The notes under the pieces are model-generated. The model was not told the origin of the DNA. It did no database searches and was given only the letters and a program-made list of their open reading frames with translations. A stretch of 34,373 nt of DNA from a virus. Numbering within the stretch: the first letter of the stretch is position 1; the number at the start of each line of letters is the position of its first letter. This document shows positions 16,433 through 34,373 of the stretch, in pieces. Position numbers and translations under genes: made by a program. The stretch lies in IMG/VR virus record IMGVR_UViG_3300021963_000386. The stretch is one strand, 5' to 3'.

Positions 16433-17689
16433 TCACCACTTCTTTACGTTTGGCAAAGGCGTGAAGACGGCAGGCTTGGCCGCACTGGACCGCCGCACCG
16501 CCTCGCAGGCGTATCGCAAGGCGTCGATGACGTGGTTTTTCTTGTCCTCCAGGATCGGCAGAATCTTACCTGTCAGTGGGTCTTGCTTATAACTGTAAAG
16601 GGTCAGCTCGTCAATCGTGTGGATGCATCGTGGGTGAACCACGATGTCGTAGTTCTTCAAGAATTCGATGCCTTCCTCGACCGACTTCGGGCCTTTGACC
16701 GCCGTCATGATCTTGGGAAAGCCGTTCTTTTTCATGTGGCTGATGGTCTCCGGCCTGGCCGAGTCGGCCACGATGGGCCACTTCTCGGACTCCGGCACTG
16801 TCATGAACAGCTCAGGCGTGTTCACGATCTCGCAGCCCACCATGTAGGCTTCGTGGTCGATGTACAGGGTGCGGCCAATGATGTGGCAGCGAACCAAGAC
16901 GGTCGGATCGATGGCAAAGCCCCAGTCAGCGCCGAGCCTGTGGATGGCGTCTCGAGGTGCCTCGAACTCGTCGATGCGCCAGTTCTTGAAGACCCTGGCG
17001 CTGCTGTTGGTCAGGTACTGGCCCATCCAGACATGGCTGTACTTGTCAGGATCGCGCCGCTTGTCGTACTCCATCTCGTCGCGCAGGACGTCTGGAAACC
17101 ACGGGTTGTCGGTGAAGTTGACCTTCAGGACGGTGGCGTCTTTGGGTGGCGTTGGGCCACGCAGCAGGTGATCGACCGGATCTGTCTGCTGGCGCGGGTT
17201 CCAGGTGAACCACAGCTCGGACTGGGGCTTGCGGATTGTTGGCCGCAGCAGGTCCAGGCTGGTCTGGCTCAGGCTCTGAGCCTCCTCCACCCAGGCGCAG
17301 TCATAGCCCTCCAGCGACTTGATCGAGTCGGCTGTGTGGTTCTGCATGCCCTGGAAGATGATCATGCCATCGCCCTTCTTGGACTTGATGACGGCCTCCT
17401 GGACCTCGAAGTAAGCGCCAGCGTTCATCTGCTCGATCTTGGTCTCGAGCAGGCGCTTGACCGACTGAGCCAGCGACTTCTGGACCTCGCGCACGCAGAC
17501 GCTGCGCCGCTTCTGATCCATGATGTGGGCCTCGATCATCAGCTCGGCAAACATGTGGGACTTGCCGCTGCCTCGGCCACCCCATGCACCTTTGTAGCGT
17601 GCTGGGTTAAGCAGCGGGAGCGCCCACTCAGGCGTCTGAATTTTCAGCGTCTGCTTTGCCACGGATGACCACTCGTTCGATCTTTGCAA
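16433..17689 (-). CDS. terL: Terminase large subunit, 418 aa
   Basis: It has a GGRGSGKSH Walker A motif near the N-terminus and a PBSX/Terminase_3-like layout. It sits between TerS and the portal gene. Confidence 0.85.
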   Translation of the reverse strand: MQRSNEWSSVAKQTLKIQTPEWALPLLNPARYKGAWGGRGSGKSHMFAELMIEAHIMDQKRRSVCVREVQKSLAQSVKRLLETKIEQMNAGAYFEVQEAVIKSKKGDGMIIFQGMQNHTADSIKSLEGYDCAWVEEAQSLSQTSLDLLRPTIRKPQSELWFTWNPRQQTDPVDHLLRGPTPPKDATVLKVNFTDNPWFPDVLRDEMEYDKRRDPDKYSHVWMGQYLTNSSARVFKNWRIDEFEAPRDAIHRLGADWGFAIDPTVLVRCHIIGRTLYIDHEAYMVGCEIVNTPELFMTVPESEKWPIVADSARPETISHMKKNGFPKIMTAVKGPKSVEEGIEFLKNYDIVVHPRCIHTIDELTLYSYKQDPLTGKILPILEDKKNHVIDALRYACEAVRRSSAAKPAVFTPLPNVKKW

Positions 17690-18086
17690 ACTCCAGGGGC
17701 GCGCCGTCTGCGCCGGTCAGCTCGTGCGCCTGGGTTTCCTTCCACTTCATCTGGGTCTTGGACCACCAGATCATGGCCGCCGTGTCGCCGCCCATTGCCT
17801 TCTGGAACAGAGTGCGACCGACGCCAGAGTTCGCCTTGGCCTTGCCGGCCACCAGCTCGGTGGCAAAGTGCTTGCGCAGCGTGTCGGTGTCGATGCCGCC
17901 GCGCACCAGGATGGCGATCTGCTCGATTGGCAGGCCGTAGCCTGACATTGCCTCGACCTGTTTGCGCTCTGCGTCGGTCGGCTCAAAGGCCATCCGACCA
18001 GCGTTTTCCCGTGCGCCGCCGTTGTTTTTCCGGCCATCCGGCTTTTTTAGAACCGATTTTTCAATTGTGGGTTTTCGTGCTGCCAT
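17628..18086 (-). CDS. terS: Terminase small subunit, 152 aa
   Basis: It lies directly upstream of and overlaps terL. It carries an HTH-like segment and the motif AAMIWWSKTQMKWKE, which is common in small terminases. Confidence 0.7.
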   Translation of the reverse strand: MAARKPTIEKSVLKKPDGRKNNGGARENAGRMAFEPTDAERKQVEAMSGYGLPIEQIAILVRGGIDTDTLRKHFATELVAGKAKANSGVGRTLFQKAMGGDTAAMIWWSKTQMKWKETQAHELTGADGAPLEFAKIERVVIRGKADAENSDA

Positions 18087-19323
18087 CTTTAACCTCCGCG
18101 AAAGGTTGTCCAGTTTCTGCGTGAACTGCGATTTTGCCTGTGAACTCCTGCCAGCGCTTGACGATGACGTCGCAGTAGCGCGGGTCCAGCTCCATCAGCA
18201 TTGCCGTGCGGCCGTTCTTCTCGGCTGCGATCAGGGTGGTTCCGGAGCCGCCGAAGGAGTCGAGCACCAGGTCGCCGCCCTTTGTGTTGTTGAGCATCTG
18301 GTACTCGAACAGCGCCACCGGCTTCATGGTCGGATGCTCGCCGTTGCGGCTGGGCTTGTCGAACTCCAGGATGGTGGTCTGCTTGCGGTCAGCCGCCCAG
18401 AGGTGTCCAGCACCGTCTTTCCAGCCGTACAGGCACGGCTCGTGCTTCCAGTGGTAGTCCTGGCGTCCCATGACCATCGAGGACTTCTTCCAGATCAAGC
18501 ACTGCCGCACCGTCCATCCAGCGTCCTTGGCCGCGCCTCGGAAGTTGTAGCCCTCGCTGTCGGCGTGCCAGATGTAGAACACCGAGCCAGGTTTCATCAC
18601 CATGTCGGCAGCGGTGTAAGCATCGCGCAAGAACTGTCGAAACTGATCGTCGCCCATCTCGTCGTTTTTGATGGTCAGCTTTTCCTTTGTGCCGCCCTCG
18701 TAAGCCACGTTGTATGGTGGGTCTGTCAGCCACATATCCACCAGTTGGCCGCCAGTGAGTTTTGTCAGGTCGTCGACGCTGGTCGAATCACCACACAGAA
18801 GGCGGTGCTTTCCCATCACCCAGACGTCACCAGGCACTGTGACCGGGTTTTCTTGCACGGCCGGAGCATCGTCAGGATCGGTGAGGCCATCGGTGCCTTG
18901 CACTGGCATTAGCGCCGCGATCTCCTCATCGGTAAACCCCACCAGATTCAGATCGAACCCAAGATCACCTAGCTCACCCAGCTCGAGCGCCAGCAGATCG
19001 TTGTCCCAGCCGGCGTTCAGCGCCAGTTTGTTGTCGGCTATGACGTAGGCGCGTTTCTTGGCATCGCTCCAGCCTTTGGCCACCATGACAGGGACTTCGG
19101 TCATCTTGAGGCGTTGAGCTGCGAGGGTACGACCGTGGCCGGCAATGATGCTGCCGTCCTCATCCACCAGAACGGGTGTTGTCCAGCCCCATTCCTTGAT
19201 GCTGGCTGCCAGCTGGCTGATTTGTTCGTCGGAGTGGGTGCGGCTGTTGCGTGCGTAGGGCGTGAGCTTGTCGATGCTCCAGCGTTCGACTTTATCTGCG
19301 GGATTGTGGGTTTTTGTGGTCAT
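18061..19323 (-). CDS. ParB-like nuclease domain fused to an N6-adenine/N4-cytosine DNA methyltransferase, 420 aa
   Basis: The N-terminal ParB-type motif is IDKLTPYARNSRTHSDEQISQLAASIKEWGWTTPVLVD...IIAGHGR. The catalytic motif is TDPPYN. The SAM-binding motif LDSFGGSGTT lies near the C-terminus, giving a beta-class motif order. Confidence 0.85.
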   Translation of the reverse strand: MTTKTHNPADKVERWSIDKLTPYARNSRTHSDEQISQLAASIKEWGWTTPVLVDEDGSIIAGHGRTLAAQRLKMTEVPVMVAKGWSDAKKRAYVIADNKLALNAGWDNDLLALELGELGDLGFDLNLVGFTDEEIAALMPVQGTDGLTDPDDAPAVQENPVTVPGDVWVMGKHRLLCGDSTSVDDLTKLTGGQLVDMWLTDPPYNVAYEGGTKEKLTIKNDEMGDDQFRQFLRDAYTAADMVMKPGSVFYIWHADSEGYNFRGAAKDAGWTVRQCLIWKKSSMVMGRQDYHWKHEPCLYGWKDGAGHLWAADRKQTTILEFDKPSRNGEHPTMKPVALFEYQMLNNTKGGDLVLDSFGGSGTTLIAAEKNGRTAMLMELDPRYCDVIVKRWQEFTGKIAVHAETGQPFAEVKDGSTKTHN

Positions 19324-19502
19324 GCTGCATTGTCTTTCAGATTTTGTTGCCGCGCTAGTTTCATGGCATCTTTAAGGTCGAGGCGAAGCTGCTCGTTTGC
19401 GGCCTGCTCGGCCACCAGTCGTTCGTAGACCTCGGCTGCGAACTTGGCGAGGGTTTCTTGTTGCCAGCTTGCGAAGTTGGGGGAGTCGTGAATGGGTGTC
19501 AT
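19320..19502 (-). CDS. Hypothetical helical protein, 60 aa
   Basis: ORF-track ORF with ATGA overlaps at both ends to its neighbours. Confidence 0.5.
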   Translation of the reverse strand: MTPIHDSPNFASWQQETLAKFAAEVYERLVAEQAANEQLRLDLKDAMKLARQQNLKDNAA

Positions 19503-19882
19503 GTTCTGGCGCTCATGTTCGGAGTTACGAGATCATGCCATTTTTTATGGCAAGCGCGGCAAAGATAAGCAACGGGCCAGTAGTCGGCTTCATTGCCGAA
19601 TAAATACTGAGGTGCCCAATGGTGTAATTCACCTTCATCTGCATCGCACACTTCGCATTTAATTTGAATTTGTCGTTTCTCAATATATTCTGCTGTTCTT
19701 GTTTTTAAATATTTCAGCGGGCCATTTTCTCTGGCGTGTTCCAAGGCAATTCTTTTCTTCACATATTTTGCAAACACTTCTCCGCATGCTTTGCAGTAGA
19801 TCGGATAAACGGTCGCGCCCGATGTGATGTTGGTGATTCCGACATCAAGTTGGTCCGACCCACAGGTCTTGCACTTATCCAC
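19499..19882 (-). CDS. HNH-family endonuclease with an N-terminal zinc ribbon, 127 aa
   Basis: It starts at a GTG following AGGA. The motif CEVCDADEGELHHWAPQYLFGNEADYWPVAYLCRACHKKWH has the CxxC..HH..N..CxxCH layout. An N-terminal CKTCG...CKACG pair is also present. The gene is visibly AT-richer than its flanks. Confidence 0.65.
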   Translation of the reverse strand: MDKCKTCGSDQLDVGITNITSGATVYPIYCKACGEVFAKYVKKRIALEHARENGPLKYLKTRTAEYIEKRQIQIKCEVCDADEGELHHWAPQYLFGNEADYWPVAYLCRACHKKWHDLVTPNMSART

Positions 19883-19920
19883 AGGTTGTTCCTTTCAGGT
19901 CAAAAAATGCACATCGTGGC

Positions 19921-20031
19921 TGGGACAATGGGACACACCCTAAAGGTGTGTGTCCTGTCCTGTCCCAGGCTGCCTCGCCTTGTCCTCGGGACAAAAGTCC
20001 CAATTGTCCCAGTCCTGTCCCAATTGTCCCA
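19921..20031. repeat. Dense array of about 12 GGGACA/TGTCCC hexamers, with nested 15-bp direct repeats and palindromes
   Basis: Read directly. TGGGACA occurs at 19921 and 19929. TGTCC occurs at 19951 and 19956, and TGTCCCA at 19961. The palindrome TGTCCtcgGGACA spans 19981-19993 and GGGACaaaaGTCCC spans 19988-20001. GTCCCAATTGTCCCA occurs at 19997-20011 and again at 20017-20031. A hairpin ACACACC-ctaaa-GGTGTGT spans 19933-19951. Confidence 0.85.
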
Positions 20032-20033
20032 CT

Positions 20034-21923
20034 CTACTTTTCAGTCCTTCGGACCATCAAGGTTGCCGCTGTAGCGCTGTCACAGACCACCCAGCCATGT
20101 TGATGAGCACGAATAATTTGAGCGTTTAGCAGGTTATAAATTAACCTGCCTTTTTTACTTTCCTGGGCATAAGTTTTTGCAGTAGATTCTGTCAGTCCTT
20201 CATTTATCGTGAGATATTCAAGTAATGCACTGCGCGATAGATAAGGCATTTTGTCTCGGTCTTCAGCCCCAGCAGCCCACCAAGCGTTTGTGAATTTGCG
20301 AATATCTTTTTGAATTTCAGAATCCTTTTTTTCCTTTTTCTCCGGTGCATTTTCTTCAATCACAAATACTGCGCCTTTTATTTCCTCGCCATCCTCATCA
20401 ATCCATCCCAGCGGCACTGTCTCCAGCTTGCCGAAGAACGGATTCGGAGGCTCTGCGTCCTTCATCTTGGTGCAGGTAATCTCGATGCTGTTGTCGTTCT
20501 TGGAGACAAGAATGGAGGCATCAAGCGATGCCTTCCAGGCGCTGGAGCCACGCGCCCGCTGCTTGGATTCGGCTGCATGCCCGGTGTGGTGATTGAGGCA
20601 CACGCTGGAGCCAAGCGCCCTGGCCACGATGTTGCAGGCATTGAGCATGTTGCGGGTGTCCTTGGCGCTGTTCTCATCCCCAGACATGTGATTATTCACA
20701 GTGTCTATAAAGATTGCCACCGCATCGTCCTGGGTGATTTCGCGCACCGCGTTGATGATCTGGGCTGCCGCGGCTGGGCTGTCGATGTCGATTGCCTTGT
20801 TCGAGATCAGGAGGTTGTCCAATTCTTGGACATCGTGGGCCTTGCACCAGGCTGTCACCCGCTGGCGCAGGCCGTAGTTCCCTTCCCCGGCCATGTAGAC
20901 CACCAAGCCTGCTTTGGTCTTGTGGCCATGCCACTGCAAGCCTGCCGCGATATTGCAGGCCATGTCCAGGGTGATGAAGGTTTTGCCAGAGCCTGACTCA
21001 CCATAAACCATGCTCACGCCACTATCGGGAATCCAGCCCTTAATGATCCAGCGCAAGGGAGCGGGTTGGCCAAGATAGGAGGTGGCGCGGGTGAAAAAAT
21101 ATTCTTGCGTCTCTGCCTGGGCTGCTGACAAGATGAACTCGGCAGATTCTGAGCCGATGCTTGTTGAGGCCGCTACATCGCTCTCCGGCTCGTACCTGGC
21201 CACGCTCTTGACGATCTGGACCAACTCAGAGGATGGCAGAGGAATCTCGCAGCGGGTCTCATTGGCAATGGCCAGCGCGGCCATGATCTCGGCCTCTGTC
21301 ATGCCGTAGCGCCGCATCGCACCGCCCAGGGCTGTCAGGCCGTTGTTTCGACTGCCTTGAATCAGACCGCCGCCAGTGGTGCTGGCCTGGCGCTCCGCAG
21401 GCTTGCGCATCGCCCTGTAGGACTCAAGCCATTGGCTGGGGATCGTGAATGGTGCCACGCCGTCAAATGGATCGGATGAGGCTTCCCATTGATAGCTGCG
21501 CCCTTCAATGCTTGAGGGAAAGGCCACGAAGTAGCGCCCATCGGCCAGCAGGTCCACGCCTTCAGCGAGCTTACAAGACCTGATCTCTGGGTTGTAGACG
21601 CCGAGGTGATGCTCACCGCCGCCTGCGGTCATCTGCATGGCACCGTCTGGAAGCCGCCCATTGGCATCGAGCCATGCGGCCCATGACGCATCGCCACCGT
21701 TGCGAGGGTCGATGTCAAAGACGACTATGCCAGATCGCTCACCGGCTGCGATGCCGATGTTGAAGTCTGGGTTCTGTGCCCACCATCTGGCGATCTGCTC
21801 GGGGTCTGTGGTGGCATCCTTGACCCCATGCTGGGTGGCAGGAACTTTGCCATTGGGGACCACCGGGATGACATGCCAGCCCCAAGAGGCGTAGGTCAGG
21901 GCTGCTTCAGCTTTGCTGGTCAT
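20034..21923 (-). CDS. Bifunctional primase-polymerase (Prim-Pol) / RecA-like helicase-type ATPase, 629 aa
   Basis: The N-terminal Prim-Pol motifs are WGWHVIPVVPNGKVPATQHGVKDATTD...NIGIAAGERSGIVVFDIDPRNGG...GGGEHH. The central Walker A motif is VYGESGSGKTF, AAA_25/RepA-like. The last 100 or so codons are AT-rich. Confidence 0.85.
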   Translation of the reverse strand: MTSKAEAALTYASWGWHVIPVVPNGKVPATQHGVKDATTDPEQIARWWAQNPDFNIGIAAGERSGIVVFDIDPRNGGDASWAAWLDANGRLPDGAMQMTAGGGEHHLGVYNPEIRSCKLAEGVDLLADGRYFVAFPSSIEGRSYQWEASSDPFDGVAPFTIPSQWLESYRAMRKPAERQASTTGGGLIQGSRNNGLTALGGAMRRYGMTEAEIMAALAIANETRCEIPLPSSELVQIVKSVARYEPESDVAASTSIGSESAEFILSAAQAETQEYFFTRATSYLGQPAPLRWIIKGWIPDSGVSMVYGESGSGKTFITLDMACNIAAGLQWHGHKTKAGLVVYMAGEGNYGLRQRVTAWCKAHDVQELDNLLISNKAIDIDSPAAAAQIINAVREITQDDAVAIFIDTVNNHMSGDENSAKDTRNMLNACNIVARALGSSVCLNHHTGHAAESKQRARGSSAWKASLDASILVSKNDNSIEITCTKMKDAEPPNPFFGKLETVPLGWIDEDGEEIKGAVFVIEENAPEKKEKKDSEIQKDIRKFTNAWWAAGAEDRDKMPYLSRSALLEYLTINEGLTESTAKTYAQESKKGRLIYNLLNAQIIRAHQHGWVVCDSATAATLMVRRTEK

Positions 21924-22095
21924 TGCTCCGGCCTTCCAAGTAGGTGGACAGAGCCAGCATTACCTTGTAGGTCGGGTTGGCCTCAGGGTTGTCTCGCACC
22001 TCTCGGATGGTGTTGTAGTGCAGCCCGGTGGCCTCTGCCACCTTGACCGGCATGCGGTCAGATAGGGCATTTCGTATCTGCTCCAAGGTCATCAT
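21907..22095 (-). CDS. Cro-like small HTH regulator, 62 aa
   Basis: It is the first gene of the leftward early unit. The HTH segment is VKVAEATGLHYNTIREVR. Confidence 0.6.
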   Translation of the reverse strand: MMTLEQIRNALSDRMPVKVAEATGLHYNTIREVRDNPEANPTYKVMLALSTYLEGRSNDQQS

Positions 22096-22129
22096 TTTCA
22101 GTTCCCTATAAAAAAAAATTGGTGGGGTG

Positions 22130-22159
22130 TTGACATTCTACATTTTTTTGGAGTATAGT
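22130..22159 (+). promoter_or_regulatory. Rightward early sigma70-type promoter
   Basis: TTGACA (22130-22135), an 18-nt spacer, then TATAGT (22154-22159). It lies about 60 nt upstream of the first + gene. Confidence 0.65.
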
Positions 22160-22163
22160 GCAA
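22135..22163 (-). promoter_or_regulatory. Leftward early sigma70-type promoter, interdigitated with the rightward one
   Basis: On the minus strand: TTGCAC (22163-22158), a 17-nt spacer, then TAGAAT (22140-22135). Confidence 0.55.
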
Positions 22164-22218
22164 CCACTGCGCGAACGGAATCACCCAAAGGCGCAGCAAC
22201 TACCAAGGAGAGCCACTC

Positions 22219-22893
22219 ATGGCAATCAACGTGAAGAAGACCGCTGGCCTGACCGCCAACGGCGTAAAAGTCTTGGTCTATGGCCAAGCAGGGGCTGGCA
22301 AGACCAGCCTCATTAAAAGCCTGCCCAAGCCCATCGTTCTCTCGGCTGAAGGCGGCCTGTTGTCCATACAGGACGCCGACCTGCCATTCATTGAGATCAC
22401 CTCAATGACTGAGCTGCAGGAGGCTTACACCTGGCTGACCAGCAGCGACGAGGCCAAGTCCTACAAATCGGTGGCACTGGACAGCATCAGCGAGATCGCT
22501 GAGGTCTGCCTGAACACCGAGAAGAAGGCCACCAAAGACCCACGCCAGGCCTACGGTGCGATGCAGGAGCAGATGGCCGACATCATTCGCGCTTTCCGCG
22601 ATCTGCCTGGCCGCCATGTGTACATGAGCGCAAAGCTGGAGAAGACGCAGGACGAGATGGGACGGGTTCTGTACTCGCCCTCGATGCCTGGCAACAAGAC
22701 CGGCCAGGCGCTGCCTTACTTCTTCGACGAGGTGCTGGCCCTGCGTGTCGAGAAAGATGGCGACGGAGCCACCCAGCGTGCGCTGATGTGCGACTCGGAT
22801 GGACTCTGGCTGGCCAAGGATCGCAGCGGCAAGCTGGATGCCTGGGAGGCACCGGACCTGAGCGCAGTCATTTCCAAGATTGGAGGCAAGTGA
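22219..22893 (+). CDS. Sak4-like AAA_24-family ATPase (RecA-like recombination protein), 224 aa
   Basis: AAGGAG RBS. The Walker A motif is VLVYGQAGAGKTSL. Length and layout are typical of the phage AAA_24 family, and the gene is followed by a DUF669-type gene. Confidence 0.8.
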   Translation: MAINVKKTAGLTANGVKVLVYGQAGAGKTSLIKSLPKPIVLSAEGGLLSIQDADLPFIEITSMTELQEAYTWLTSSDEAKSYKSVALDSISEIAEVCLNTEKKATKDPRQAYGAMQEQMADIIRAFRDLPGRHVYMSAKLEKTQDEMGRVLYSPSMPGNKTGQALPYFFDEVLALRVEKDGDGATQRALMCDSDGLWLAKDRSGKLDAWEAPDLSAVISKIGGK

Positions 22894-24114: not shown

Positions 24115-25146
24115 ATGAAGATACCCGAGTCAGAGCATACCATCCAGGCGCTGATTGACAAAGCGCACGAAGCAAAAGCTGAGCAGCCAAGGGGCCACAT
24201 GGGCTGCAGCCAGCTTGGCCACGCATGCGACCGCTGGCTGTGGCTGTCGTTTCGCTGGGCTGTGCAGTCAAAGTTCCCTGGCCGCATCCTGCGTTTGTTC
24301 CGCAGGGGCCAGCTCGAGGAGGCCAACATCATCAGCGACCTGCGAGCCATTGGCATGGACATTCGCAGCACATCAGGCAAGCAGACCAGGGTAGACCTTG
24401 GCTGCCATGTGTCCGGCAGCCTGGACGCCATCATCGAGTCTGGCGTGCCAGAAGCGCCCAAGAAGCGCCATGTGGCCGAGTTCAAGACGCACAGCAAGAA
24501 GTCATTTGATGACCTGGTGAAAGAAGGCGTGGAGAAGTCCAAGCCCGAGCATTTTGTGCAGATGCAGCTCTACATGCACGGCACCAAGATCGACCGTGCC
24601 TTTTATCTGGCTGTCTGCAAGGACGATGACCGTATCCACACCGAGCGAGTGCGTTACGACAAAGAAGTGGCCGAGAAGTACATCCAGCGAGGCCACAGGC
24701 TGGCCACAGAGGATCGGATGCCGCCACCGATCAGCACAGACCCGAGCTGGTATCAGTGCAAGTTTTGCGATGCGCACGAGTTCTGCCACAGCACAAAGAC
24801 AACCAAGCATGTGAACTGCCGCACCTGTGCACACAGCACGTCCACCAAGGCCAGCGAGTGGCACTGCGCCAAGTGGGATGCTGTGATTCCAGTGGATGCC
24901 CAGCGCACTGGATGTGAAGGACATGTCCTACATCCTGATCTGGTGGCCTGGCAGCGCAAGGACGGGCCAGACGAGTGGACGGCTGTTTATGAGATCAATG
25001 GCACGAATGTGGCCAACGGAGACCCTGAGCAAGAAGGCGTGTTCAGCTCCAAGGAGCTGCTTGCAAACGCTGCTGCCTGTGCGGATAAGGGCTGGACTCA
25101 ACTGCATGATCTGCGCAAGCAGTTTGGTGGGAGGGTGGTGGGTTGA
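24115..25146 (+). CDS. Cas4/RecB-like PD-(D/E)xK exonuclease with CX2CX5C cluster and an extra Cys/His-rich C-terminal domain, 343 aa
   Basis: ATG 24115 follows AAGGAG with a 6-nt spacer; the track start at 24088 is also possible. The nuclease motifs are GSLDAII ... VAEFKTH ... QMQLYM. YQCKFCDAHEFC is the CX2CX5C cluster. The tail contains NCRTCAHS...HCAKW...GCEGHVLH. Confidence 0.75.
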   Translation: MKIPESEHTIQALIDKAHEAKAEQPRGHMGCSQLGHACDRWLWLSFRWAVQSKFPGRILRLFRRGQLEEANIISDLRAIGMDIRSTSGKQTRVDLGCHVSGSLDAIIESGVPEAPKKRHVAEFKTHSKKSFDDLVKEGVEKSKPEHFVQMQLYMHGTKIDRAFYLAVCKDDDRIHTERVRYDKEVAEKYIQRGHRLATEDRMPPPISTDPSWYQCKFCDAHEFCHSTKTTKHVNCRTCAHSTSTKASEWHCAKWDAVIPVDAQRTGCEGHVLHPDLVAWQRKDGPDEWTAVYEINGTNVANGDPEQEGVFSSKELLANAAACADKGWTQLHDLRKQFGGRVVG

Positions 25147-25190
25147 TGCTGCGTGACTACCAACAGCGAACCATTGACCAGCTTTATGCG
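25146..25190 (+). pseudogene. Relic 5' end of the helicase gene (MLRDYQQRTIDQLYA), now fused in frame to the HNH ORF
   Basis: ATG 25146 has a TGATG overlap with the nuclease stop. These 15 codons are a diverged copy of helicase codons ELREYQSRALDMLYA at 25907..25951. Both copies end in TATGCGT. Confidence 0.5.
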
Positions 25191-25909
25191 TTACAATGCA
25201 AATATCCTCATAAACTCAAGGACATTTGCATTATGGGCAAGCCAATCATCAGCATGGTCGGACTTAAGTCTCACAGGTGGACTGTTGTGTCTGAAGCGCA
25301 AAAACCATCTGGCGCATCACAAACTGGAAAGTTTTGGAACTGTGTTTGTGAGTGCGGCACACAGCGCGTCGTTTATGGCGAAACCATCAGGAGTGGGAGC
25401 AGCAAGTCTTGCGGTTGTTTGAAAGCAGAGAAAAGCGCGGTCGCCATGAAAGAAATGAGGCTGCGCCAATCTGGTTCTTTGCAAGACCGGTTTTTTTCTC
25501 GGTTTGTCAAACTTGAAAATGGTTGTTGGCAATGGAGAGCGCACACCGACAAAGATGGATATGGAATCTTGCCCGGCGCAAATCAAAACACAAGATCACA
25601 CCGCCTATCGTATGAGATTCACATTGGTGAGATTCCTGAAGGATTGATTGTCTGCCACCACTGCGACAACCCAGGATGCGTTAACCCTGACCATCTTTTT
25701 GTCGGCACACAGAAAGACAACGCACATGACGCATTGCAAAAAGGTAGGCACTACATTGGAGAAAAAAATGGTAGATCAAAACTGACTGCAGAGAACGCCA
25801 AAGAAATATTGAATTCTGACATGAATGGCCAACAACTGGCAGATAAGTTTGGTGTCACCAGATCAACAATCAACAATGTCAGAAGAGGCGTGACGTGGAA
25901 AAAATAGAA
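25191..25909 (+). mobile_element. Putative free-standing homing-endonuclease cassette inserted at the helicase 5' end
   Basis: An AT-rich segment is bounded by two diverged copies of the same helicase N-terminal coding sequence. It contains only the HNH gene. Confidence 0.45.
25233..25907 (+). CDS. HNH_3-type homing endonuclease with a C-terminal HTH, 224 aa (the track ORF extends to 25143)
   Basis: The core motif is GYGILPGANQNTRSHRLSYEIHIGEIPEGLIVCHHCDNPGCVNPDHLFVGTQKDNAHD. The upstream Cys motif is WNCVCECG...SCGC. The C-terminal HTH-like segment is KLTAENAKEIL...LADKFGVTRSTINNVRRGVTW. The region is visibly AT-rich. Confidence 0.8.
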   Translation: MGKPIISMVGLKSHRWTVVSEAQKPSGASQTGKFWNCVCECGTQRVVYGETIRSGSSKSCGCLKAEKSAVAMKEMRLRQSGSLQDRFFSRFVKLENGCWQWRAHTDKDGYGILPGANQNTRSHRLSYEIHIGEIPEGLIVCHHCDNPGCVNPDHLFVGTQKDNAHDALQKGRHYIGEKNGRSKLTAENAKEILNSDMNGQQLADKFGVTRSTINNVRRGVTWKK

Positions 25910-27511
25910 TTGCGAGAGTACCAGTCTCGCGCATTGGACATGCTGTATGCGTGGTTTGAGAAAAATTCGACAGGCCATCCAGTATTGAACATGCCAGGCG
26001 GGTCTGGCAAGTCCGTAGTGATTGCGTCGCTTGCCAAAGATGCGCTGCAAAACTGGCCTGAGACGCGAATTTTGATGTTGGTGCACTCCAAAGAGTTGAT
26101 TCTTCAAAACGCTGACAAACTGCGCAAGCTGTGGCCCGGTGCGCCTCTTGGCATTTACAGCGCCAGCGTGGGCAAGCGTCAATTGGAGGAGCCAATCACA
26201 TACGCTGGCATTGGGTCTGTGGCCAAACGCGCCAAGCAAATCGGGCACATTGACTTGTGCATCATTGACGAGGTGCACGCCGTATCAACCACTGAGAACG
26301 GCATTTACCGCAAACTGATCGCCGACCTTCTGGAGATCAACCCGGACATGCGGATTGTGGGCCTGAGTGCCAGCCCGTACCGTCTTGGTCAAGGGCTAAT
26401 AACCGAAGGGCCAACCGCAATCTTTTCCGAGATTTTGGAGCCGGTGAGCATTGAGGAATTGGTTTTCAAAACCCACCTTGTGCCGCTGCGCTCAAAAATC
26501 ACCACGCACAAGCTGGAGACGGACGGACTGCATAAGCGCCAGGGAGAATACATTGCGTCTGAAATGGAAGCCAAGTTCAACACCGATGACCATAACCAAG
26601 CTGTGGTGCAAGAAATCATTGAGAAGGCAAGCAGCCGTAAACACTGGCTGATCTTCTGCTCCGGTGTCGCGCACTCTGAGGCCGTGGCTAAATGCCTGCG
26701 TGCTGCCGGTATTGCTGCAGAAGCCCTGGACGCAACGCATAGCAAGTCGGAGCGAGAGCGCAAGCTATCTGACTTTGAGTCTGGGCGTATGCGTGCCATT
26801 TGCTCGGTTGGAATTTTGACGACTGGCTACGACTTCCCTGCGCTGGACTGCATTGCATTTTTGCGGTCCACGATGTCACCAGGGCTTTACCTGCAAATGG
26901 CCGTGCGAGGCATGAGGCCGCACGCTGGCAAGGCCGACTGCCTGGTGCTGGACTTTGCTGGGGTGGTGGCCACGCACGGTCCGATCACCGCAGTGCAGCC
27001 TCCCAAGAAGGCAGGAGATGGCAATGGCGAGGCACCAGTGAAGGTCTGCGACAACTGCGGAGAGTTGTGCGCCATCTCTGTTGCTGCCTGCCCTGCTTGC
27101 GGCCATCCGTTCCCCGAGCCGGAGCGCAAGAAACTGGAGCTTCGAAACGACGACATCATGGGCCTGGAAGGCAAAGACCTAGAGGTCACTGCCTGGAACT
27201 GGCGCAGGCACATCAGCAAGGCCAGCGGCAAAGAGATGTTGTCCTGCACTTATTACGGTAGTCTGTCCGACAAGCCGATCATTGAATATCTGCCTGTGCT
27301 GCACGATGGCTATGCTGGGCAGCGGGCGATGCAGCAGCTTTTCAACATGGCCAACTCGTCGGGGGCGCATTTGGCCGAGGCCGAGCGCATGAGCGATAGC
27401 GAGGGGCTGGACTACCTAGCCGTGCAGATGAGCAACAGCCAGCCGCCCAAGGCCATCGAATACAAAATGGATGGGAAGTTTCACCGTGTTTTGAAGAGGA
27501 GTTGGGAGTGA
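25895..27511 (+). CDS. SF2 (DEAD/DEAH-type) DNA helicase with a C-terminal zinc ribbon, 538 aa
   Basis: The motifs are LREYQ, a Walker A MPGGSGKS, a DEVH box (IIDEVHA), SASP, and the C-terminal CDNCGELCAISVAACPACGH. The start is GTG 25895 (GAGG, 6-nt spacer), inside the HNH 3' end. TTG 25910 is an alternative start. Confidence 0.85.
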   Translation: MEKIELREYQSRALDMLYAWFEKNSTGHPVLNMPGGSGKSVVIASLAKDALQNWPETRILMLVHSKELILQNADKLRKLWPGAPLGIYSASVGKRQLEEPITYAGIGSVAKRAKQIGHIDLCIIDEVHAVSTTENGIYRKLIADLLEINPDMRIVGLSASPYRLGQGLITEGPTAIFSEILEPVSIEELVFKTHLVPLRSKITTHKLETDGLHKRQGEYIASEMEAKFNTDDHNQAVVQEIIEKASSRKHWLIFCSGVAHSEAVAKCLRAAGIAAEALDATHSKSERERKLSDFESGRMRAICSVGILTTGYDFPALDCIAFLRSTMSPGLYLQMAVRGMRPHAGKADCLVLDFAGVVATHGPITAVQPPKKAGDGNGEAPVKVCDNCGELCAISVAACPACGHPFPEPERKKLELRNDDIMGLEGKDLEVTAWNWRRHISKASGKEMLSCTYYGSLSDKPIIEYLPVLHDGYAGQRAMQQLFNMANSSGAHLAEAERMSDSEGLDYLAVQMSNSQPPKAIEYKMDGKFHRVLKRSWE

Positions 27512-27978
27512 GAGGCCGCGCCCTGCCGCACTATGGCAAGCTGGGTGTGGCCAACCTGCCCAGCGAGGTCAAGGCCATCTGGTACAGCCGGCACATTGAG
27601 CCAGAGCCATGCGAGCCGATTGATTTCTGGTGGCCGACGCAGACTGATCCTGATCTGTGGATCAGGCAGGACTTTGCGCGCCGCCTGGTGGCCATCACAC
27701 CGCTGACCGAGCAGGAGGAGCAAGCTGTCATCCTGTGCGTGCTGGACAACCACACGCTGCGCGAGGCAGGCGAGGTGATGGGCCGCACGCAAGAGCGTGT
27801 GCGCCAGATTCTGATGAAGGCAATGCGCAGGTTTCGCAAGCACCAGTCAGAGCTGACTGGCGTGCCGATGTGGGAATTGGACGACAGGGTGATGCCCTGG
27901 TCTTTTTGGAAGTACGAGCAAAGGAGACGACATGACCACCAGACCACCAGAGCCAGAGTTCCTGATTCAATGGCGTGA
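27508..27978 (+). CDS. Sigma-70 region-4-like HTH protein (candidate transcription regulator), about 156 aa
   Basis: LTEQEEQAVILCVLDNHTLREAGEVMGRTQERVRQILMKAMRRFRK matches the sigma70 region 4 pattern. The start is uncertain: GTG 27508 has a GTGA overlap and follows GAGGAG, while the track uses TTG 27502. Confidence 0.65.
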   Translation: MRGRALPHYGKLGVANLPSEVKAIWYSRHIEPEPCEPIDFWWPTQTDPDLWIRQDFARRLVAITPLTEQEEQAVILCVLDNHTLREAGEVMGRTQERVRQILMKAMRRFRKHQSELTGVPMWELDDRVMPWSFWKYEQRRRHDHQTTRARVPDSMA

Positions 27979-28129
27979 ATGGGAACGGGCTGGCCCGCCC
28001 AAGTGTTGTTTTACTTGCGAACACTATGGGGTTGATGGCCTGTGCGTGGAGTTCTTCATGACGCCGCCAGCAGAGTTTGCATCCGAGGTGGATGCCTGCC
28101 CTAAGTGGGAGCCAGAATGTCCGTTCTAG
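27932..28129 (+). CDS. Small Cys-rich protein, 65 aa
   Basis: A strong RBS, AAGGAG with a 5-nt spacer, precedes ATG 27932. The Cys pattern is CCFTCEH...C...C...C. It overlaps the upstream gene by 47 nt. Confidence 0.6.
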   Translation: MTTRPPEPEFLIQWREWERAGPPKCCFTCEHYGVDGLCVEFFMTPPAEFASEVDACPKWEPECPF

Positions 28130-28479
28130 GCCGTATCCCAACCGAGCATGAGGAGCAGCGCGAGCTGGTGCGCTGGTTCCGGCAGTCCTGGCCAGGCGTT
28201 CGCATTTTTGCGATCCCAAATGGCGGGGCCAGGAGCAAAGCCACCGCTGGCCGCCTGAAGGCCGAAGGTGTGGCCTCTGGCGTGCCCGACTTGTTCGTGC
28301 CTGCCTGGAGCCTGTGGGTCGAGATGAAACGCAGCAAAGGCGGCAGCCTCAGTGCTGAGCAAAAAGACTGGATCGCATATCTGGAAAGTGTGGGATTCTG
28401 TTGTATAGTGGGAAAAGGTGCTGGTCATGCAAAAGAGCAGATCAGCACTTTTTTCACCAACCACATAGGAAACACATGA
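28117..28479 (+). CDS. VRR-NUC domain nuclease, 120 aa
   Basis: EHEEQRELVRWF...IFAIPNGGARSKATAGRLKAEGVASGVPDLFV...WVEMKRSKGGSLSAEQKDW fits VRR-NUC. ATG 28117 follows GGGAG with a 5-nt spacer; the track uses GTG 28105. Confidence 0.8.
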   Translation: MSVLGRIPTEHEEQRELVRWFRQSWPGVRIFAIPNGGARSKATAGRLKAEGVASGVPDLFVPAWSLWVEMKRSKGGSLSAEQKDWIAYLESVGFCCIVGKGAGHAKEQISTFFTNHIGNT

Positions 28480-28715
28480 CCACGCGCATCTATGTCGTCA
28501 CCGACACCGAAACCAACAAGCACCGCCTGATTCGTGCAGCCAACCAGGCCCAGGCCATCAAGTACGCAGCCCAGACCCGATTCGACATCGAGGTGGCTGG
28601 CCAGGACGATCTGGTAAGCCTGCTCACGCACGGCATCCCTGTCGAGCTGGCCACCGGCCAGGCCACCGCAGACATGTTCGAGGATGTGGTCACCAATGCT
28701 GGGGGCACAGACTGA
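28476..28715 (+). CDS. Hypothetical small phage protein, 79 aa
   Basis: The track ORF 28401..28715 is trimmed to ATG 28476, which has an ATGA overlap with the VRR-NUC stop. Translation: MTTRIYVVTDTETNKHRLIRAANQAQAIKYAAQ... Confidence 0.55.
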   Translation: MTTRIYVVTDTETNKHRLIRAANQAQAIKYAAQTRFDIEVAGQDDLVSLLTHGIPVELATGQATADMFEDVVTNAGGTD

Positions 28716-28888
28716 TGGCCTCCACAGACGCCAAGACCAAGGATCGCTACATGACAATCCGCATCCCAGCAGATGTTGAGCTGGCGCTGCGCCGCCAGGC
28801 AGAAAACGACACCAGGACACTGGCCGCCCAGGTATTGCACTACATCAAGCAGGGGCTGGCTGACGAAAACAAGAAGGTGGCTGCATGA
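28715..28888 (+). CDS. Ribbon-helix-helix (Arc/CopG-like) DNA-binding protein, 57 aa (below the track cutoff)
   Basis: Manual translation: MASTDAKTKDRYMTIRIPADVELALRRQAENDTRTLAAQVLHYIKQGLADENKKVAA. It has a TGATG overlap upstream and an ATGA overlap downstream. The beta-strand/helix/helix pattern is typical of RHH proteins. Confidence 0.6.
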   Translation: MASTDAKTKDRYMTIRIPADVELALRRQAENDTRTLAAQVLHYIKQGLADENKKVAA

Positions 28889-29043
28889 AGTGCCCTGTCT
28901 GCGGCACCTGGACGCTGGTGAAGGAAACTCGCCAGCGTGCAGAGAACGCCAAATATCGCCGCTACGAGTGCGCCAATGAACACCGCTTCACGACGCTCGA
29001 GAAGGTGGCCAAGATCATCGCTGCAAAAAAGGCAAAAGACTAG
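28885..29043 (+). CDS. Zinc-ribbon protein, Ogr/Delta-like, 52 aa (below the track cutoff)
   Basis: Manual translation: MKCPVCGTWTLVKETRQRAENAKYRRYECANEHRFTTLEKVAKIIAAKKAKD. The CxxC ... YxC-x3-H layout resembles P2 Ogr-type late activators. Confidence 0.5.
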   Translation: MKCPVCGTWTLVKETRQRAENAKYRRYECANEHRFTTLEKVAKIIAAKKAKD

Positions 29044-31752: not shown

Positions 31753-32105
31753 TACAACCCCTGGCCTGGAGTGATGTACACGGTCGCTGCCGAGCTGGAC
31801 AGGCCGCTGAAGAATGTGGTCTGGTTGAAGCGCAGAATCTCCACGGCACCAGGCAGCAGTACGATGGCCGGTGAAGGGTTGCCGGCCACTGGAGCCACCG
31901 CATTGGCCGCGGCCTCTGCTGCGGTGCTGCCAGTGCCCAAGAACACATTCGTGGTGCCTGCATTGATGAATCGGAACTGGCCTGCGTTCTGCGGATCAAA
32001 CTTAGCGTAAACAGGCGCCTGTATGCCAGTAGGAGCTGATGCAGCGGCTGCCACTACAACGGTGTTGCCGAGTGGTGCAAATGCGATTTGTGAATTAGTA
32101 GACAT
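31752..32105 (-). CDS. Hypothetical small beta-rich protein, 117 aa
   Basis: ORF-track ORF with a TAGGAG RBS. It is Ala/Gly/Thr-rich and ends in ...TVYITPGQGL. Confidence 0.6.
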   Translation of the reverse strand: MSTNSQIAFAPLGNTVVVAAAASAPTGIQAPVYAKFDPQNAGQFRFINAGTTNVFLGTGSTAAEAAANAVAPVAGNPSPAIVLLPGAVEILRFNQTTFFSGLSSSAATVYITPGQGL

Positions 32106-32118
32106 GTCAGACTCCTAT

Positions 32119-32460
32119 TTAATTTACAGCCCAAGGAACAGGCTTAAAAACAACTGGTTGATCTCTTGATGCAATGGTCTCTTGCATCTGGTTTTCGATG
32201 TTAATTTTTAACAGGTCAATTCTCTGTTGACCCATTGCTGCTTGTATCCAAGATACAACTTGTGATTCTGTCACTTGGTCAAATGGCGTGAATCCATTTT
32301 GATCAAAAGTAATATCTTGCTGGCAAAGCACAGATGCACTGTCATTGCCAATAAATCCTTTGATGTTGACCATCGCGGAAACAATAACATCAGAGACGTT
32401 GTTTTTTTGTGCAACTTGTAGGCCTTGAATAGACCATTCGAGGTTTTCAATTTTAGACAT
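32119..32460 (-). CDS. Hypothetical protein downstream of the tail fibre gene, 113 aa
   Basis: ORF-track ORF that overlaps the fibre gene stop by 8 nt. It is AT-rich like the fibre gene. Confidence 0.6.
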   Translation of the reverse strand: MSKIENLEWSIQGLQVAQKNNVSDVIVSAMVNIKGFIGNDSASVLCQQDITFDQNGFTPFDQVTESQVVSWIQAAMGQQRIDLLKINIENQMQETIASRDQPVVFKPVPWAVN

Positions 32461-33583
32461 TGCTGGCTCCTTGTTGGGTTTGAAGTTGAGTGATCATCGA
32501 GTGCAACTCTTGAATTGCCTTCACAAGATATGGGACAAGATTTTGGTTGATCGAAAGCATTCCGTCATCACCGGCACGAACTTGATCTGGGAATGTCTCT
32601 GCATATTTCTGAGCAATGAAACCAACGTCATGTTTTCCGTCAGTCTTGTAATCAAACTCGACAGGACGCAGTGCAAGAATTTTGTCCAAAGATGAATCAA
32701 GATCGACAATGTTTTTCTTGACTCGTTCATCAGAGGTCACGGCCCATGTAGCTGAGTTTGCACCGTTATATGCTCCAGCACTTCCACCGATGAAAGCTGT
32801 GTTAGTGCCCTTGCCAGTTGCGCCTGCACCGATAGCAATCTCACTGGTGACTGTTGCAGATGATGCCGATGATTGATAGCCAACGTAGACGTTATCGGAG
32901 CCGCTGGTGATGTTGTAACCAGCCAAACAACCAAAGCCAGTGTTTCCAGATGCGGTTGTGGCAGTCAAAGCACCATTGCCTGTTGCTGTGTTGTAGTTCC
33001 CGCTGACGAGGCTTCGCAAAGCGGCCTGGTAGCCCGTACTGGGGTCATACCCTCCGACAGCCACGTTGCCGATGCCAGTTGTGCTGTTTTGCAATGCAAG
33101 AGCACCAAATGCTGTTGCTTGCCCTGTGCTGGTAGATGCACCAGCTCTGCTTCCAACAATTGTGTTAAATGAAGTCGTTGCTGCATTCAGGGATTGATTT
33201 CCAATTGCTGTGTTTTCTGTGCCAGATGCATTGGATGCTAAGGCATTCACACCAAGAACCGTACTTGTCGACACCGCACCGCCGCCCTTGCCAACTGTCA
33301 GACCTTGGACGGTTGCAACGCCAGTTACTGTCAGATTGACACCATTCAGATCGGCACCGCCTTCGATGCGCTGCCATGTGGTCCCATTAAACGCGATAAC
33401 ATCGCCAACCCCCCAATTTGATATTCCATTGATGGATGTTGAACCAGCTACGCTGACTTGATAATAGTCGCCTTTTGTACCGACACCAGACGCAAGAGTT
33501 GGAGTGTTTGTGCTGGCGTTCCATGTACCAACATAATTCAGCGCACCAATAGCATTGGTGATAGAGGAAACTGTTTTCAACAT
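32453..33583 (-). CDS. Tail fibre with a C-terminal Peptidase_S74 intramolecular chaperone domain, 376 aa
   Basis: AAGGAG RBS. The N-terminal motif is YVGTWNASTNTPTLASGVGTKGDYYQVSVAG...GDVIAFNGTTWQRI. The middle has repeated N-T/V-A-I/V-G head-like repeats. The C-terminal SDERVKKNIVDLDSSLDKILALRPVEFDYK...GFIAQ is the S74 chaperone signature. Confidence 0.85.
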   Translation of the reverse strand: MLKTVSSITNAIGALNYVGTWNASTNTPTLASGVGTKGDYYQVSVAGSTSINGISNWGVGDVIAFNGTTWQRIEGGADLNGVNLTVTGVATVQGLTVGKGGGAVSTSTVLGVNALASNASGTENTAIGNQSLNAATTSFNTIVGSRAGASTSTGQATAFGALALQNSTTGIGNVAVGGYDPSTGYQAALRSLVSGNYNTATGNGALTATTASGNTGFGCLAGYNITSGSDNVYVGYQSSASSATVTSEIAIGAGATGKGTNTAFIGGSAGAYNGANSATWAVTSDERVKKNIVDLDSSLDKILALRPVEFDYKTDGKHDVGFIAQKYAETFPDQVRAGDDGMLSINQNLVPYLVKAIQELHSMITQLQTQQGASNV

Positions 33584-33595
33584 TATTTCTACTCC

Positions 33596-34373
33596 TTAAA
33601 GTGGAATGACAACAAACCGAGTTTCATCGGCATTGAGAAGACCTGTTGCGGCAAGCGTGGCAGCAGCAGTGTTTTGGTCAGCGACCACAAAAACAGTGTC
33701 GCCTTGATTCAAATAAACTTGACCCACGTTGCTGTATGTTTGAACACCAGCATTAACTTGGTATTCTGCCTTGGCGCATTGAGTGCCTTGAACAGTTGTG
33801 TAAAAACCCGTCCTAATGCGAGTGCCAATAGCGCAAGTTAAAGGTAAATTAACTTGAACTTGATACAAACCAGTGTAAGGCGCTGTATAAGTGCTGGTAG
33901 CAAGATCGTACTGTGTAGACAAAGATGCGGCTACTTGAGCAGCATTGAATGTCAACTTGGCCGCTGATGTTCCCCATCCAGTGTTTGGAACAAGGGTTGC
34001 AGCAGCACTTCCAAGTGCATCAGAAAGTCCCTTGTTAAAAGAATCCCATAGCACTTTTGTCAACCTAGATACTCGGATTGACATTGCTGTGGACATTTGG
34101 CTGTTTTGCGTAATCCAAGCGTCTGTGACACCAAGGCCACCGTTGTCTGCGTAATCAACATTCACTACAAGTCCGGCAATCGAACTTGAGTTGTTGCATT
34201 GCATAAAGTTGCCGAGGTCTGCAAGTGTTCCACCTGATTCAATGCGGTTAAAAGCATTGATGTATCCGGTGCGGATGCTAGGGTCAGCGCCTGCCGTAAT
34301 TTCAAAACAGCGTTCAGGCCAGTATTTGCCTGCTGCTGCGCTGTACCGATGGTTAAAACGAAACTGTGTAAAG
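33596..34373 (-). CDS. Tailspike protein, 3' third (unique part 33596..34246); same gene as 1..1341; C1q/TNF-like C-terminal domain
   Basis: The frame is open from 34373 down to the stop at 33596. ...GYINAFNRIESGGTLADLGNFMQCNN... shows that the track ORF (34204 start) is internal. The joined gene is 1992 nt, 663 aa. The C-terminus reads YDLATSTYTAPYTGLYQVQVNL...VYLNQGDTVFVV...ETRFVVIPL. Confidence 0.85.
   Translation of the reverse strand, partial: FTQFRFNHRYSAAAGKYWPERCFEITAGADPSIRTGYINAFNRIESGGTLADLGNFMQCNNSSSIAGLVVNVDYADNGGLGVTDAWITQNSQMSTAMSIRVSRLTKVLWDSFNKGLSDALGSAAATLVPNTGWGTSAAKLTFNAAQVAASLSTQYDLATSTYTAPYTGLYQVQVNLPLTCAIGTRIRTGFYTTVQGTQCAKAEYQVNAGVQTYSNVGQVYLNQGDTVFVVADQNTAAATLAATGLLNADETRFVVIPL
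34247..34373. repeat. Second copy of the 127-nt terminal block (identical to 1..127)
   Basis: Direct comparison of the two window ends. Confidence 0.9.

Follow-up and report, generated by a model that had tools for sequence, protein, structure and literature searches.

A hexamer repeat array behind the primase-helicase gene of an uncultured phage is probably a replication origin read by the C-terminal domain of the initiator

The IMG/VR virus record IMGVR_UViG_3300021963_000386 (34,373 nt; hereafter, the window) is essentially the whole genome (ca. 34 kb) of a phage whose nearest GenBank relative is a 34.5-kb circular metagenomic assembly (MW202867.1). Between the stop codon of its primase-helicase gene (positions 20034 to 20036, minus strand) and the next minus-strand start codon (GTG; 19882) lies a gap of 151 nt (19883 to 20033), which carries a dense array of the hexamer GGGACA in both orientations. 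What is this array for? The initial annotation, which was made from the letters of the window, offered two functions (i.e., an iteron origin of replication or a control region for the late genes). On the basis of comparative sequence analysis, we consider it probable that the array is the replication origin of the phage and that it is read by the winged-helix-like tail of the adjoining primase-helicase. The design is best read as an iteron origin of a self-loading initiator-helicase-primase, that is, a familiar type of origin associated with a different helicase family in a large group of uncultured phages.

The exact hexamer (GGGACA/TGTCCC) occurs 17 times in the window, while 18.3 occurrences are expected; there is no overall enrichment, yet 7 of the 17 copies fall within positions 19922 to 20030. 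Of the shorter cores, GGACA has 10 copies in the array, and GTCCC (19997 to 20001) and AGTCC (20011 to 20015) bring the number of GGAC cores to 12. That annotation had also seen no comparable density elsewhere, and we found the same: the densest other 111-bp stretch of the window contains two copies of GGGACA or three copies of GGACA and lies inside a coding region. The Poisson tail for the density of the array is approximately 6e-11 (i.e., about 1e-10), corrected for approximately 309 windows. No GGGACA cluster was found upstream of any other gene or in any other intergenic region of the window.

In the sense of the primase-helicase gene, the array consists of two repeat blocks, the second of which runs into a hairpin and faces inverted units on its far side (Table 1). 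Block 1 carries TGGGACA at 20031, 20022, and 20011 and GGGAC at 20001 (start-to-start spacing, 9-11-9 nt; the phasing in relatives is 9-11-9-9), together with a degenerate AGGAC (20015 to 20011), an inverted unit (19988 to 19993), and GGACA (19985 to 19981). Two palindromes overlap in this block (TGTCCtcgGGACA at 19981 to 19993 and GGGACaaaaGTCCC at 19988 to 20001), and the 15-mer GTCCCAATTGTCCCA is repeated exactly, with an offset of 20 bp (19997 to 20011 and 20017 to 20031). These palindromes and the 15-mer, as well as the gap length, both TGGGACA copies, the TGTCC run, and the hairpin, had all been placed correctly in the initial annotation. Each single strand of the gap gives a better fold than shuffled sequence does (z = -3.5 and -4.4).

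We scanned IMG/VR with the primase-helicase and obtained 79 loci from relatives (55 to 97% identical; designated by L numbers), of which 63 included downstream DNA. An array directly follows the primase-helicase stop codon in all 63 of these loci and in MW202867.1. Every locus that is at least 66% identical and reaches past the stop carries a GGGACA-type array within a few bases of the stop codon. The sequence past the array falls into at least 10 unrelated classes, only one of which contains the HNH-like gene that follows the array in the window. Since the array is kept while the downstream sequence varies, it belongs to the replication gene and not to the genes that follow. The 127-aa HNH-like gene, whose position is occupied by at least 10 different sequences in the relatives, lies outside the element.

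In the relatives that are 55 to 61% identical, GGGACA is absent and a different short unit is found in the same place. The unit types recorded in addition to GGGACA were AGGGGGT (L063/L064), GGGGTACC (L065), CCGTAAC (L066), CCGTACC (L067), TGTGACA (L074), GGGGACA (L054/55/58), and GGGGGACA (L033/79). The layout is shared and reads, in gene sense, as follows: four to five direct units approximately 9 to 11 nt apart, one inverted unit, a spacer (often AAGGCGAG), two to three direct units, a hairpin (mostly with a TTTA loop), two inverted units, and, in relatives of the Prim-Pol type, a YGATGYG box. Three cultured phages (i.e., Idiomarinaceae phage 1N2-2, Alteromonas phage XX1924, and Salicola phage CGphi29) encode a TOPRIM primase with the same helicase and C-terminal region. 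The same layout follows their TOPRIM-AAA_25 genes, with the units CGGTACA, TGGTTCA, and GGGGACA, respectively, and the literature mentioning these phages does not describe an origin. As a prospective test, we fetched the contigs of five proteins whose C-terminal identity was intermediate or low. Three of the five agreed with the pattern, two of them with new units (GAACA and GGNAAC) in an unchanged layout and the third (L117) with GGGACA again; one was a duplicate of L064.

A coding reading of the gap was rejected because no minus-strand open reading frame (ORF) exceeds 42 aa and because the arrays of relatives vary in unit number and spacing. Public records annotate small hypothetical proteins over such arrays, one of 54 aa (L001, 6004 to 6168; MW202867.1, 14428 to 14592) and another of 42 aa (L082, 2564 to 2692; MN592896.1, 24415 to 24543). 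These ORFs are probably spurious, for which the origin reading provides an explanation.

The adjoining protein itself is the best candidate for the reader of the units. It matches the Pfam families Prim-Pol (E = 1.9e-33), PriCT_1 (E = 7.6e-12), and AAA_25 (E = 4.3e-37), and its approximately 180 C-terminal residues have no Pfam match. A PDB sequence search returned RSF1010 RepA as the sole match (1g8y; residues 283 to 472; E = 0.002) and none for the C-terminal domain. Homologues with an E value of ≤1e-10 numbered 991 and were almost all metagenomic. The AlphaFold2 model of the last 95 residues (predicted local distance difference test score [pLDDT], 95.3; predicted template modeling score [pTM], 0.86) has the topology H-b-H-H-H-b-b-H, and most of its Foldseek matches, all weak, are winged-helix DNA-binding domains (CooA/CRP, GntR, CadC, MarR, and FOXN1). 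When Foldseek was run on a 169-residue model, the signal was diluted by a beta-rich linker.

The repeat unit changes together with this tail. In relatives with GGGACA or GGGGACA units, the ATPase domain is 74 to 77% identical to that of the window protein and the tail is 56 to 68% identical. The ATPase domain of the relatives with AGGGGGT units is equally close (73 to 75%), and their residues 557 to 629 are 27 to 30% identical; over the relatives with other units (L063 to L067 and L074), the corresponding values are 54 to 75% and 27 to 35% (residues 541/557 to 629). The segment TE(S/A)TAKTY...GRLIYNLL is nearly invariant in the GGGACA loci of the first sample (one conservative change each in L041 and L059). 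A similar helix (RLIGYLVNAG) occurs in Salicola phage CGphi29, which has GGGGACA units, although its ATPase domain is 41% identical. L115 and L116 have PIADLLLAE in common, and their units have GAAC in common. These comparisons indicate that the repeat-unit type follows the last ca. 75 residues of the primase-helicase and not the upstream Cro-like gene. The product of the latter (21907 to 22095, beside the primase-helicase gene) belongs to one of two unrelated types, both of which occur among relatives with the same GGGACA units. A comparison of the window with L043, L046, L052, L059, L037, L066, and L083 showed these types as MMTLEQIRNAL... and MKTEEAI..WPQVIYQWGE. The presence of two regulator types at one position points to module exchange there. 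Given the two unrelated types among relatives with identical units, the Cro-like regulator was ruled out as the unit binder.

These data also bear on the second function put forward initially, in which the array was a multisite late promoter or a control region for one of the small regulators encoded at 27508 to 29043; we obtained no positive support for it. In its general form, this explanation holds that the array controls transcription at the early/late boundary, either as an activator array for a late promoter (bound by a sigma-r4-like, ribbon-helix-helix [RHH], or Ogr/Delta-like protein) or as a roadblock to read-through. The array does separate the last replication gene from the HNH-like/methylase/terminase block, with all of these genes on the same strand, both in the window and in the cultured relatives; the phage encodes several small DNA-binding proteins; and a sigma-70-like promoter is found directly after the array in some relatives. 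Read-through is plausible because the gap has neither a predicted terminator nor a predicted sigma-70 promoter. However, no promoter-like site is found in 19883 to 20033, and the motif is restricted to this one intergenic region of the window. The unit changes along with the tail of the primase-helicase and shows no such link to the Cro-like regulator (i.e., the one regulator that could be tested), and replacement of the downstream genes leaves the array beside the primase-helicase. It also follows the primase-helicase in the three cultured relatives and lies approximately 5 kb (XX1924) and 2 kb (CGphi29) from the terminase genes. The hairpin, the DnaA box, and units in two orientations are features of an origin. 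A scan with the sigma-r4-like protein missed the long contigs L031, L038, and L059 (GGGACA) and L055 (GGGGACA), which counts only slightly against this explanation given that the scan reaches only close relatives. We therefore regard transcription control as an unlikely explanation of the array. An initiator bound at an origin would nevertheless be met by RNA polymerase on its way from the early to the late genes, in a gap without a predicted promoter or terminator, so the gating of read-through into the late genes is possible as a second function.

The hairpin is a further argument for the origin. It belongs, along with the inverted units on its flanks, to a larger palindrome (19920 to 19968). 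Among 20 distinct sequences, 90% of the cells were paired, and changes on both sides were seen in all 10 pairs; none of 500 shuffles reached the observed values, and slid controls were at most 60% paired. The three outer pairs are the inverted repeat units themselves, while the seven inner pairs vary. The inner stem differs even between relatives with identical C-terminal domains (CACC/GGTG in the window versus CCCC/GGGG in L002), which suggests selection on pairing rather than on protein contact. There were 26 double changes versus 5 wobble cells. The changes are thus almost all of the Watson-Crick type, which fits a structure that forms on both DNA strands. The left arm consistently has two to three extra bases between the unit and the inner stem. 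An intrinsic terminator was rejected because no T-run follows the hairpin on either strand.

Such strong covariation could also be expected if the hairpin and the repeats acted at the RNA level, where the primase-helicase transcript has its 3' end (i.e., as a processing site, a stabilizer, or an attenuator). With no terminator predicted, the region is likely to be transcribed, and the strand folds better than shuffled sequence. However, a U-run is missing after the hairpin on either strand, and the changes lead overwhelmingly from one Watson-Crick pair to another, as fits pairing on both strands of DNA. A role in RNA would also leave unexplained the dozen units in both orientations, their helical phasing, and their change with a DNA-binding-like domain. 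We judge it to be very improbable.

Beyond the array lies a perfect DnaA box (Table 1). A perfect box in the same orientation occurs 152 to 166 nt past the stop codon in 38 of the 63 relatives (with a one-mismatch box in 3 more), and it is mostly the only perfect one in those loci. Its contexts are of three unrelated kinds (i.e., the start of the HNH-like gene, noncoding sequence before a different gene, and the inside of a promoter-like spacer). Two of the three are noncoding, and the box is kept where the HNH-like gene is replaced. Its absence from the remaining relatives suggests that it is an accessory element. Two smaller motifs are conserved as well. Of 52 distinct arrays, 23 have GGCGAG at the corresponding position (4.7 in shuffles), never on the other strand; these arrays include distant repeat types and that of the TOPRIM-type Alteromonas phage XX1924. 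The AAGGCGAG motif was noted in L066, L067, L065, L033, and L082. YGATGYG occurs at the corresponding position in 34 of the 52 arrays (versus 2.8 in shuffles), exclusively in Prim-Pol-type relatives. We speculate that the YGATGYG box is a candidate priming site or a weak DnaA site; the GTG triplet that it contains is the reported start for the primases of pRN1 and RSF1010.

Table 1. Features of the putative origin and of the adjoining genes (positions in the window)
Feature	Position	Strand	Remarks
Primase-helicase gene, 629 aa, proposed initiator	20034..21923	-	Prim-Pol, PriCT_1, AAA_25 (RSF1010 RepA-type)
C-terminal 95 residues, predicted winged-helix-like domain, proposed unit reader	20037..20321	-	AlphaFold2 model
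Repeat block 1	19981..20031	-	Begins 3 nt past the stop codon
Spacer AAGGCGAG	19974..19981	-	Plus strand, CTCGCCTT; between the two repeat blocks; conserved
Repeat block 2, direct units TGGGACA-GGACA-GGACA (gene sense)	19951..19967	-	Plus strand, TGTCC-TGTCC-TGTCCCA; runs into the hairpin
Hairpin/cruciform core	19933..19951	no strand	ACACACC (19933-19939), loop CTAAA, GGTGTGT (19945-19951)
Two inverted units	19921..19935	-	Plus-strand TGGGACA at 19921-19927 and 19929-19935; opposite block 2 across the hairpin
CGATGTG box (consensus YGATGYG)	19910..19916	-	Immediately 3' of the array in gene sense; conserved
Short A/T run (T6, gene sense)	19902..19907	no strand	Between the array and the DnaA box; only A/T-rich patch of the gap
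Perfect DnaA box TTATCCACA	19875..19883	+	Only perfect box in the 34-kb window; 38 bp from the array
First downstream gene, zinc-ribbon/HNH-like	19499..19882	-	127 aa; weak Pfam HNH match (E = 0.0066)
Small terminase gene	17628-18086		Array ca. 1.8 kb upstream of the gene

The iteron-origin proposal of the initial annotation is thus well supported at the level of sequence, in that the array travels with the gene, its unit changes with the C-terminal domain, and it is accompanied by a conserved hairpin and a DnaA box. Several observations weigh against this assignment. None of the Foldseek matches of the last 95 residues reaches significance (E = 0.1 to 0.5; TMq, 0.40 to 0.51). The C-terminal coding sequence adjoins the array, so the covariation of the two could partly reflect a single recombination cassette instead of recognition. 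Among the prospective contigs, L117 has a C-terminal domain that is approximately 42% identical and yet carries GGGACA units (along with a variant of the TE(S/A)TAKTY...GRLIYNLL segment), and L118 (C-terminal domain, approximately 30% identical) has no clear array after the gene. In the window, the DnaA box shares positions with the GTG start codon of the HNH-like gene, and approximately 40% of the relatives lack the box. The center of the array is not A/T rich; it consists of the AAGGCGAGGCAGCC spacer and a GC-rich hairpin. GC skew and cumulative skew, which the initial annotation had suggested checking for an inflection, are flat over the window and uninformative. The scan of genome contigs with the primase-helicase revealed no relative in a bacterial genome (i.e., as a prophage or in a host), and the PLSDB protein search yielded only partial matches of approximately 30% and no related replicon.

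From what is established here (i.e., the cluster, its linkage to the gene, the change of the unit with the C-terminal domain, the covariation of the hairpin, and the conservation of the DnaA box), we infer how binding, melting, loading, priming, and a contribution of DnaA might proceed. The primase-helicase would be its own initiator, with its C-terminal winged-helix-like domain reading the GGGACA units. The units of block 1, which lie about one helical turn apart immediately behind the stop codon that ends the protein's own gene, would recruit several protomers. In block 2, the oppositely oriented units flank a palindrome, whose extrusion as a hairpin or cruciform would be the likely site of melting and loading. 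The RepA-type (AAA_25) helicase ring would then be loaded, and the Prim-Pol domain would prime. Since no phage DNA polymerase was recognized, extension would presumably be carried out by the host replisome. In this phage and in approximately 60% of its relatives, assistance is likely from host DnaA bound to the perfect box nearby.

Judged by analogy, the closest functional counterpart appears to be the Rep/ori system of the Staphylococcus aureus pathogenicity islands (SaPIs), in which 6 to 12 penta- or hexanucleotide iterons located right after rep, in both orientations, are read by the C-terminal winged helix of a self-loading helicase (PMC9371898). As in the islands, the putative origin directly follows the gene of the initiator-helicase (here, 3 nt past the stop codon). 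The window has 12 GGAC cores, with three direct and two inverted units opposed across the hairpin. A primase is fused to Rep in SaPI5, and the specificity differs between islands. However, the SaPI Reps are AAA+ helicases of the superfamily 3 (SF3) or MCM type, while the helicase here is of the RecA-fold AAA_25 (RSF1010 RepA) type. The center is A/T rich in SaPIs, whereas a GC-rich GGCGAG spacer and a structure-conserved hairpin occupy it here, and a DnaA box is present. In addition, the systems described here belong to uncultured freshwater phages, with phages of marine and saline Gammaproteobacteria as their cultured relatives.

The alpha protein of satellite phage P4 reportedly unites a primase, a helicase, and a C-terminal winged-helix origin-binding domain in one polypeptide and reads short repeated octamers (type I iterons) through that domain (Ziegelin et al., 1993/1995; Yeo et al., 2002). 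The protein of the window would likewise be a fused primase-helicase-winged-helix initiator with short iterons. P4 alpha reportedly has a DnaG-type primase and an SF3 helicase, requires a second iteron cluster (crr) approximately 4.5 kb away, and is encoded at a site from which ori is not directly downstream. In contrast, the window has no second iteron cluster, and the domain combinations are Prim-Pol plus AAA_25 in the window protein and TOPRIM plus AAA_25 in the cultured relatives, compared with DnaG/TOPRIM plus SF3 in P4. The iteron plasmids P1, F, pSC101, R6K, and RK2 have iterons of 17 to 22 bp and one or more consensus DnaA boxes, with an A/T-rich patch nearby. Their iterons are read by a dedicated nonhelicase Rep, and host DnaB and DnaG do the rest. 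The phage array resembles these origins in having iterons with an adjacent consensus DnaA box and a nearby A/T-rich patch, and it differs from them in having hexamer units and an initiator with its own helicase and primase.

In oriV of the IncQ plasmid RSF1010, RepA, RepB', and RepC are separate proteins, 20-bp iterons are read by RepC, two ssi hairpins lie on opposite strands, and primers begin in a GTG immediately 3' of the ssi hairpin (PMC8567376). The phage system has the same type of hexameric helicase (RepA family), a primase of the archaeo-eukaryotic type, iterons with hairpin elements, and a conserved YGATGYG box after the hairpin region that is comparable to the GTG past the ssi hairpin. 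It differs in that the functions appear to be fused, the units are 6 to 7 bp long, there is one palindrome, no RepC-like gene lies beside the array, and the distance from hairpin to GTG is approximately 22 nt (approximately 5 nt in ssiA). A bolder version of the model, which we hold to be unlikely, would have the phage carry a one-polypeptide IncQ system, in which a RepA helicase is joined to a RepB'-like archaeo-eukaryotic primase and to an iteron reader resembling RepC. The bulged hairpin and YGATGYG would then form an ssi-type single-strand priming signal for Prim-Pol, and the bound initiator would gate the late genes until replication fires.

The protein ORF904 of the archaeal plasmid pRN1 combines Prim-Pol, helicase, and winged-helix parts and is encoded in an operon behind a small repressor, with a stem-loop origin downstream of its stop codon; this stem-loop is conserved in structure and not in sequence, and similar stem-loops have been noted downstream of phage replication genes (PMC4234260). 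The phage locus likewise has a putative origin with a structure-conserved stem-loop behind a Prim-Pol/helicase/winged-helix-like gene and a small repressor upstream. The pRN1 system differs in its SF3 helicase and its 100-nt stem-loop, for which no iteron array was reported, while the stem-loop here measures approximately 20 to 30 nt and stands among a dozen iterons.

The identities of the genes that flank the array were confirmed (i.e., the primase-helicase upstream and the HNH-like, ParB_N-methylase, terminase, and portal genes downstream). The minus-strand order starts at a divergent control region (approximately 22100 to 22220) and comprises the 62-aa Cro-like regulator, the Prim-Pol + PriCT_1 + AAA_25 primase-helicase, the array, the HNH-like zinc-ribbon gene, a 60-aa ORF, the ParB_N-methyltransferase, the small terminase, the large terminase, the portal, and the remaining virion genes. 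The plus strand encodes a Sak4-like AAA_24 ATPase, DUF669, a Cas4-like exonuclease, an HNH_3 endonuclease, a DEAD helicase, a sigma-70 region-4 protein, VRR-NUC, an RHH protein, and an Ogr/Delta-like zinc finger. Neither a DNA polymerase gene nor an integrase was recognized among the genes of the window.

In this setting, the array might also be a pac or cos site at which the small terminase subunit recognizes the DNA for packaging. The pac site of phage P1 has two hexamer clusters, and the array also has two hexamer clusters around a central region, lies upstream of the small terminase gene, and is located beside an HNH-like gene. However, it tracks the primase-helicase and not the terminase. 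Its distance from the terminase genes varies (approximately 1.8 kb in the window, 2 kb in CGphi29, and 5 kb in XX1924), which argues against such a site. In addition, the array stays in the many relatives in which the HNH-like gene is replaced, and its unit type tracks the primase-helicase tail. We consider a packaging function extremely improbable. A partition site was rejected because the AAA_24 ATPase is Sak4-like and not a ParA, ParB_N is fused to a methyltransferase, and there is no ParA/ParB pair.

Other features of these genomes were recorded alongside. One protein (18061 to 19323) joins the ParB_N domain to an N6/N4 DNA methyltransferase, and its gene is directly upstream of the small terminase gene. 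The divergent control region contains a strong plus-strand sigma-70-like promoter (22122 to 22159; TTGACA-18-TATAGT; 11 of 12 matches), which overlaps with a terminator-like hairpin. The HNH_3 endonuclease gene (25143 to 25907), whose product has a C-terminal helix-turn-helix, is flanked by the genes for the Cas4-like exonuclease and the DEAD helicase and has a GC content of approximately 0.48, compared with approximately 0.58 in its neighbors; no gene occupies this position in MW202867.1, which suggests the insertion of a homing endonuclease. The GC content is also low (0.45 to 0.48) at 32001 to 34000, over the tail-fiber gene (32453 to 33583) and its neighbor, while it is 0.55 to 0.62 in most of the genome; this region may be an exchanged host-range cassette. 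In a subgroup of the relatives (L008, L013, L026, L072, L051, L059, and L058), a sigma-70-like promoter (TTGAC[G/A/T]-17-TACTCT) lies approximately 150 to 200 nt past the primase-helicase stop codon; beyond it come inverted repeats of the TCTATAGA type and then another gene cassette. In the region after its primase-helicase gene (2594 to 2860), L118 has a promoter-like site and, approximately 200 nt downstream, a large GC-rich palindrome (GCGAGTGC...CACGCAC-ATGAC-GTGCGTG...GCACTCGC).

The literature that we searched describes no replication origin for this group of primase-helicases. The present analysis would provide a concrete origin and an initiator-DNA recognition pair for a group of nearly 1,000 mostly metagenomic homologues. 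It also suggests that the hexamer-iteron design of origins is not bound to one helicase superfamily, since it would operate here with a RecA-fold RepA-type helicase that is joined to either a Prim-Pol or a TOPRIM primase. With at least nine repeat-unit types and distinct C-terminal domains on one scaffold, these phages may offer a natural series for the study of winged-helix recognition codes and of origin incompatibility.

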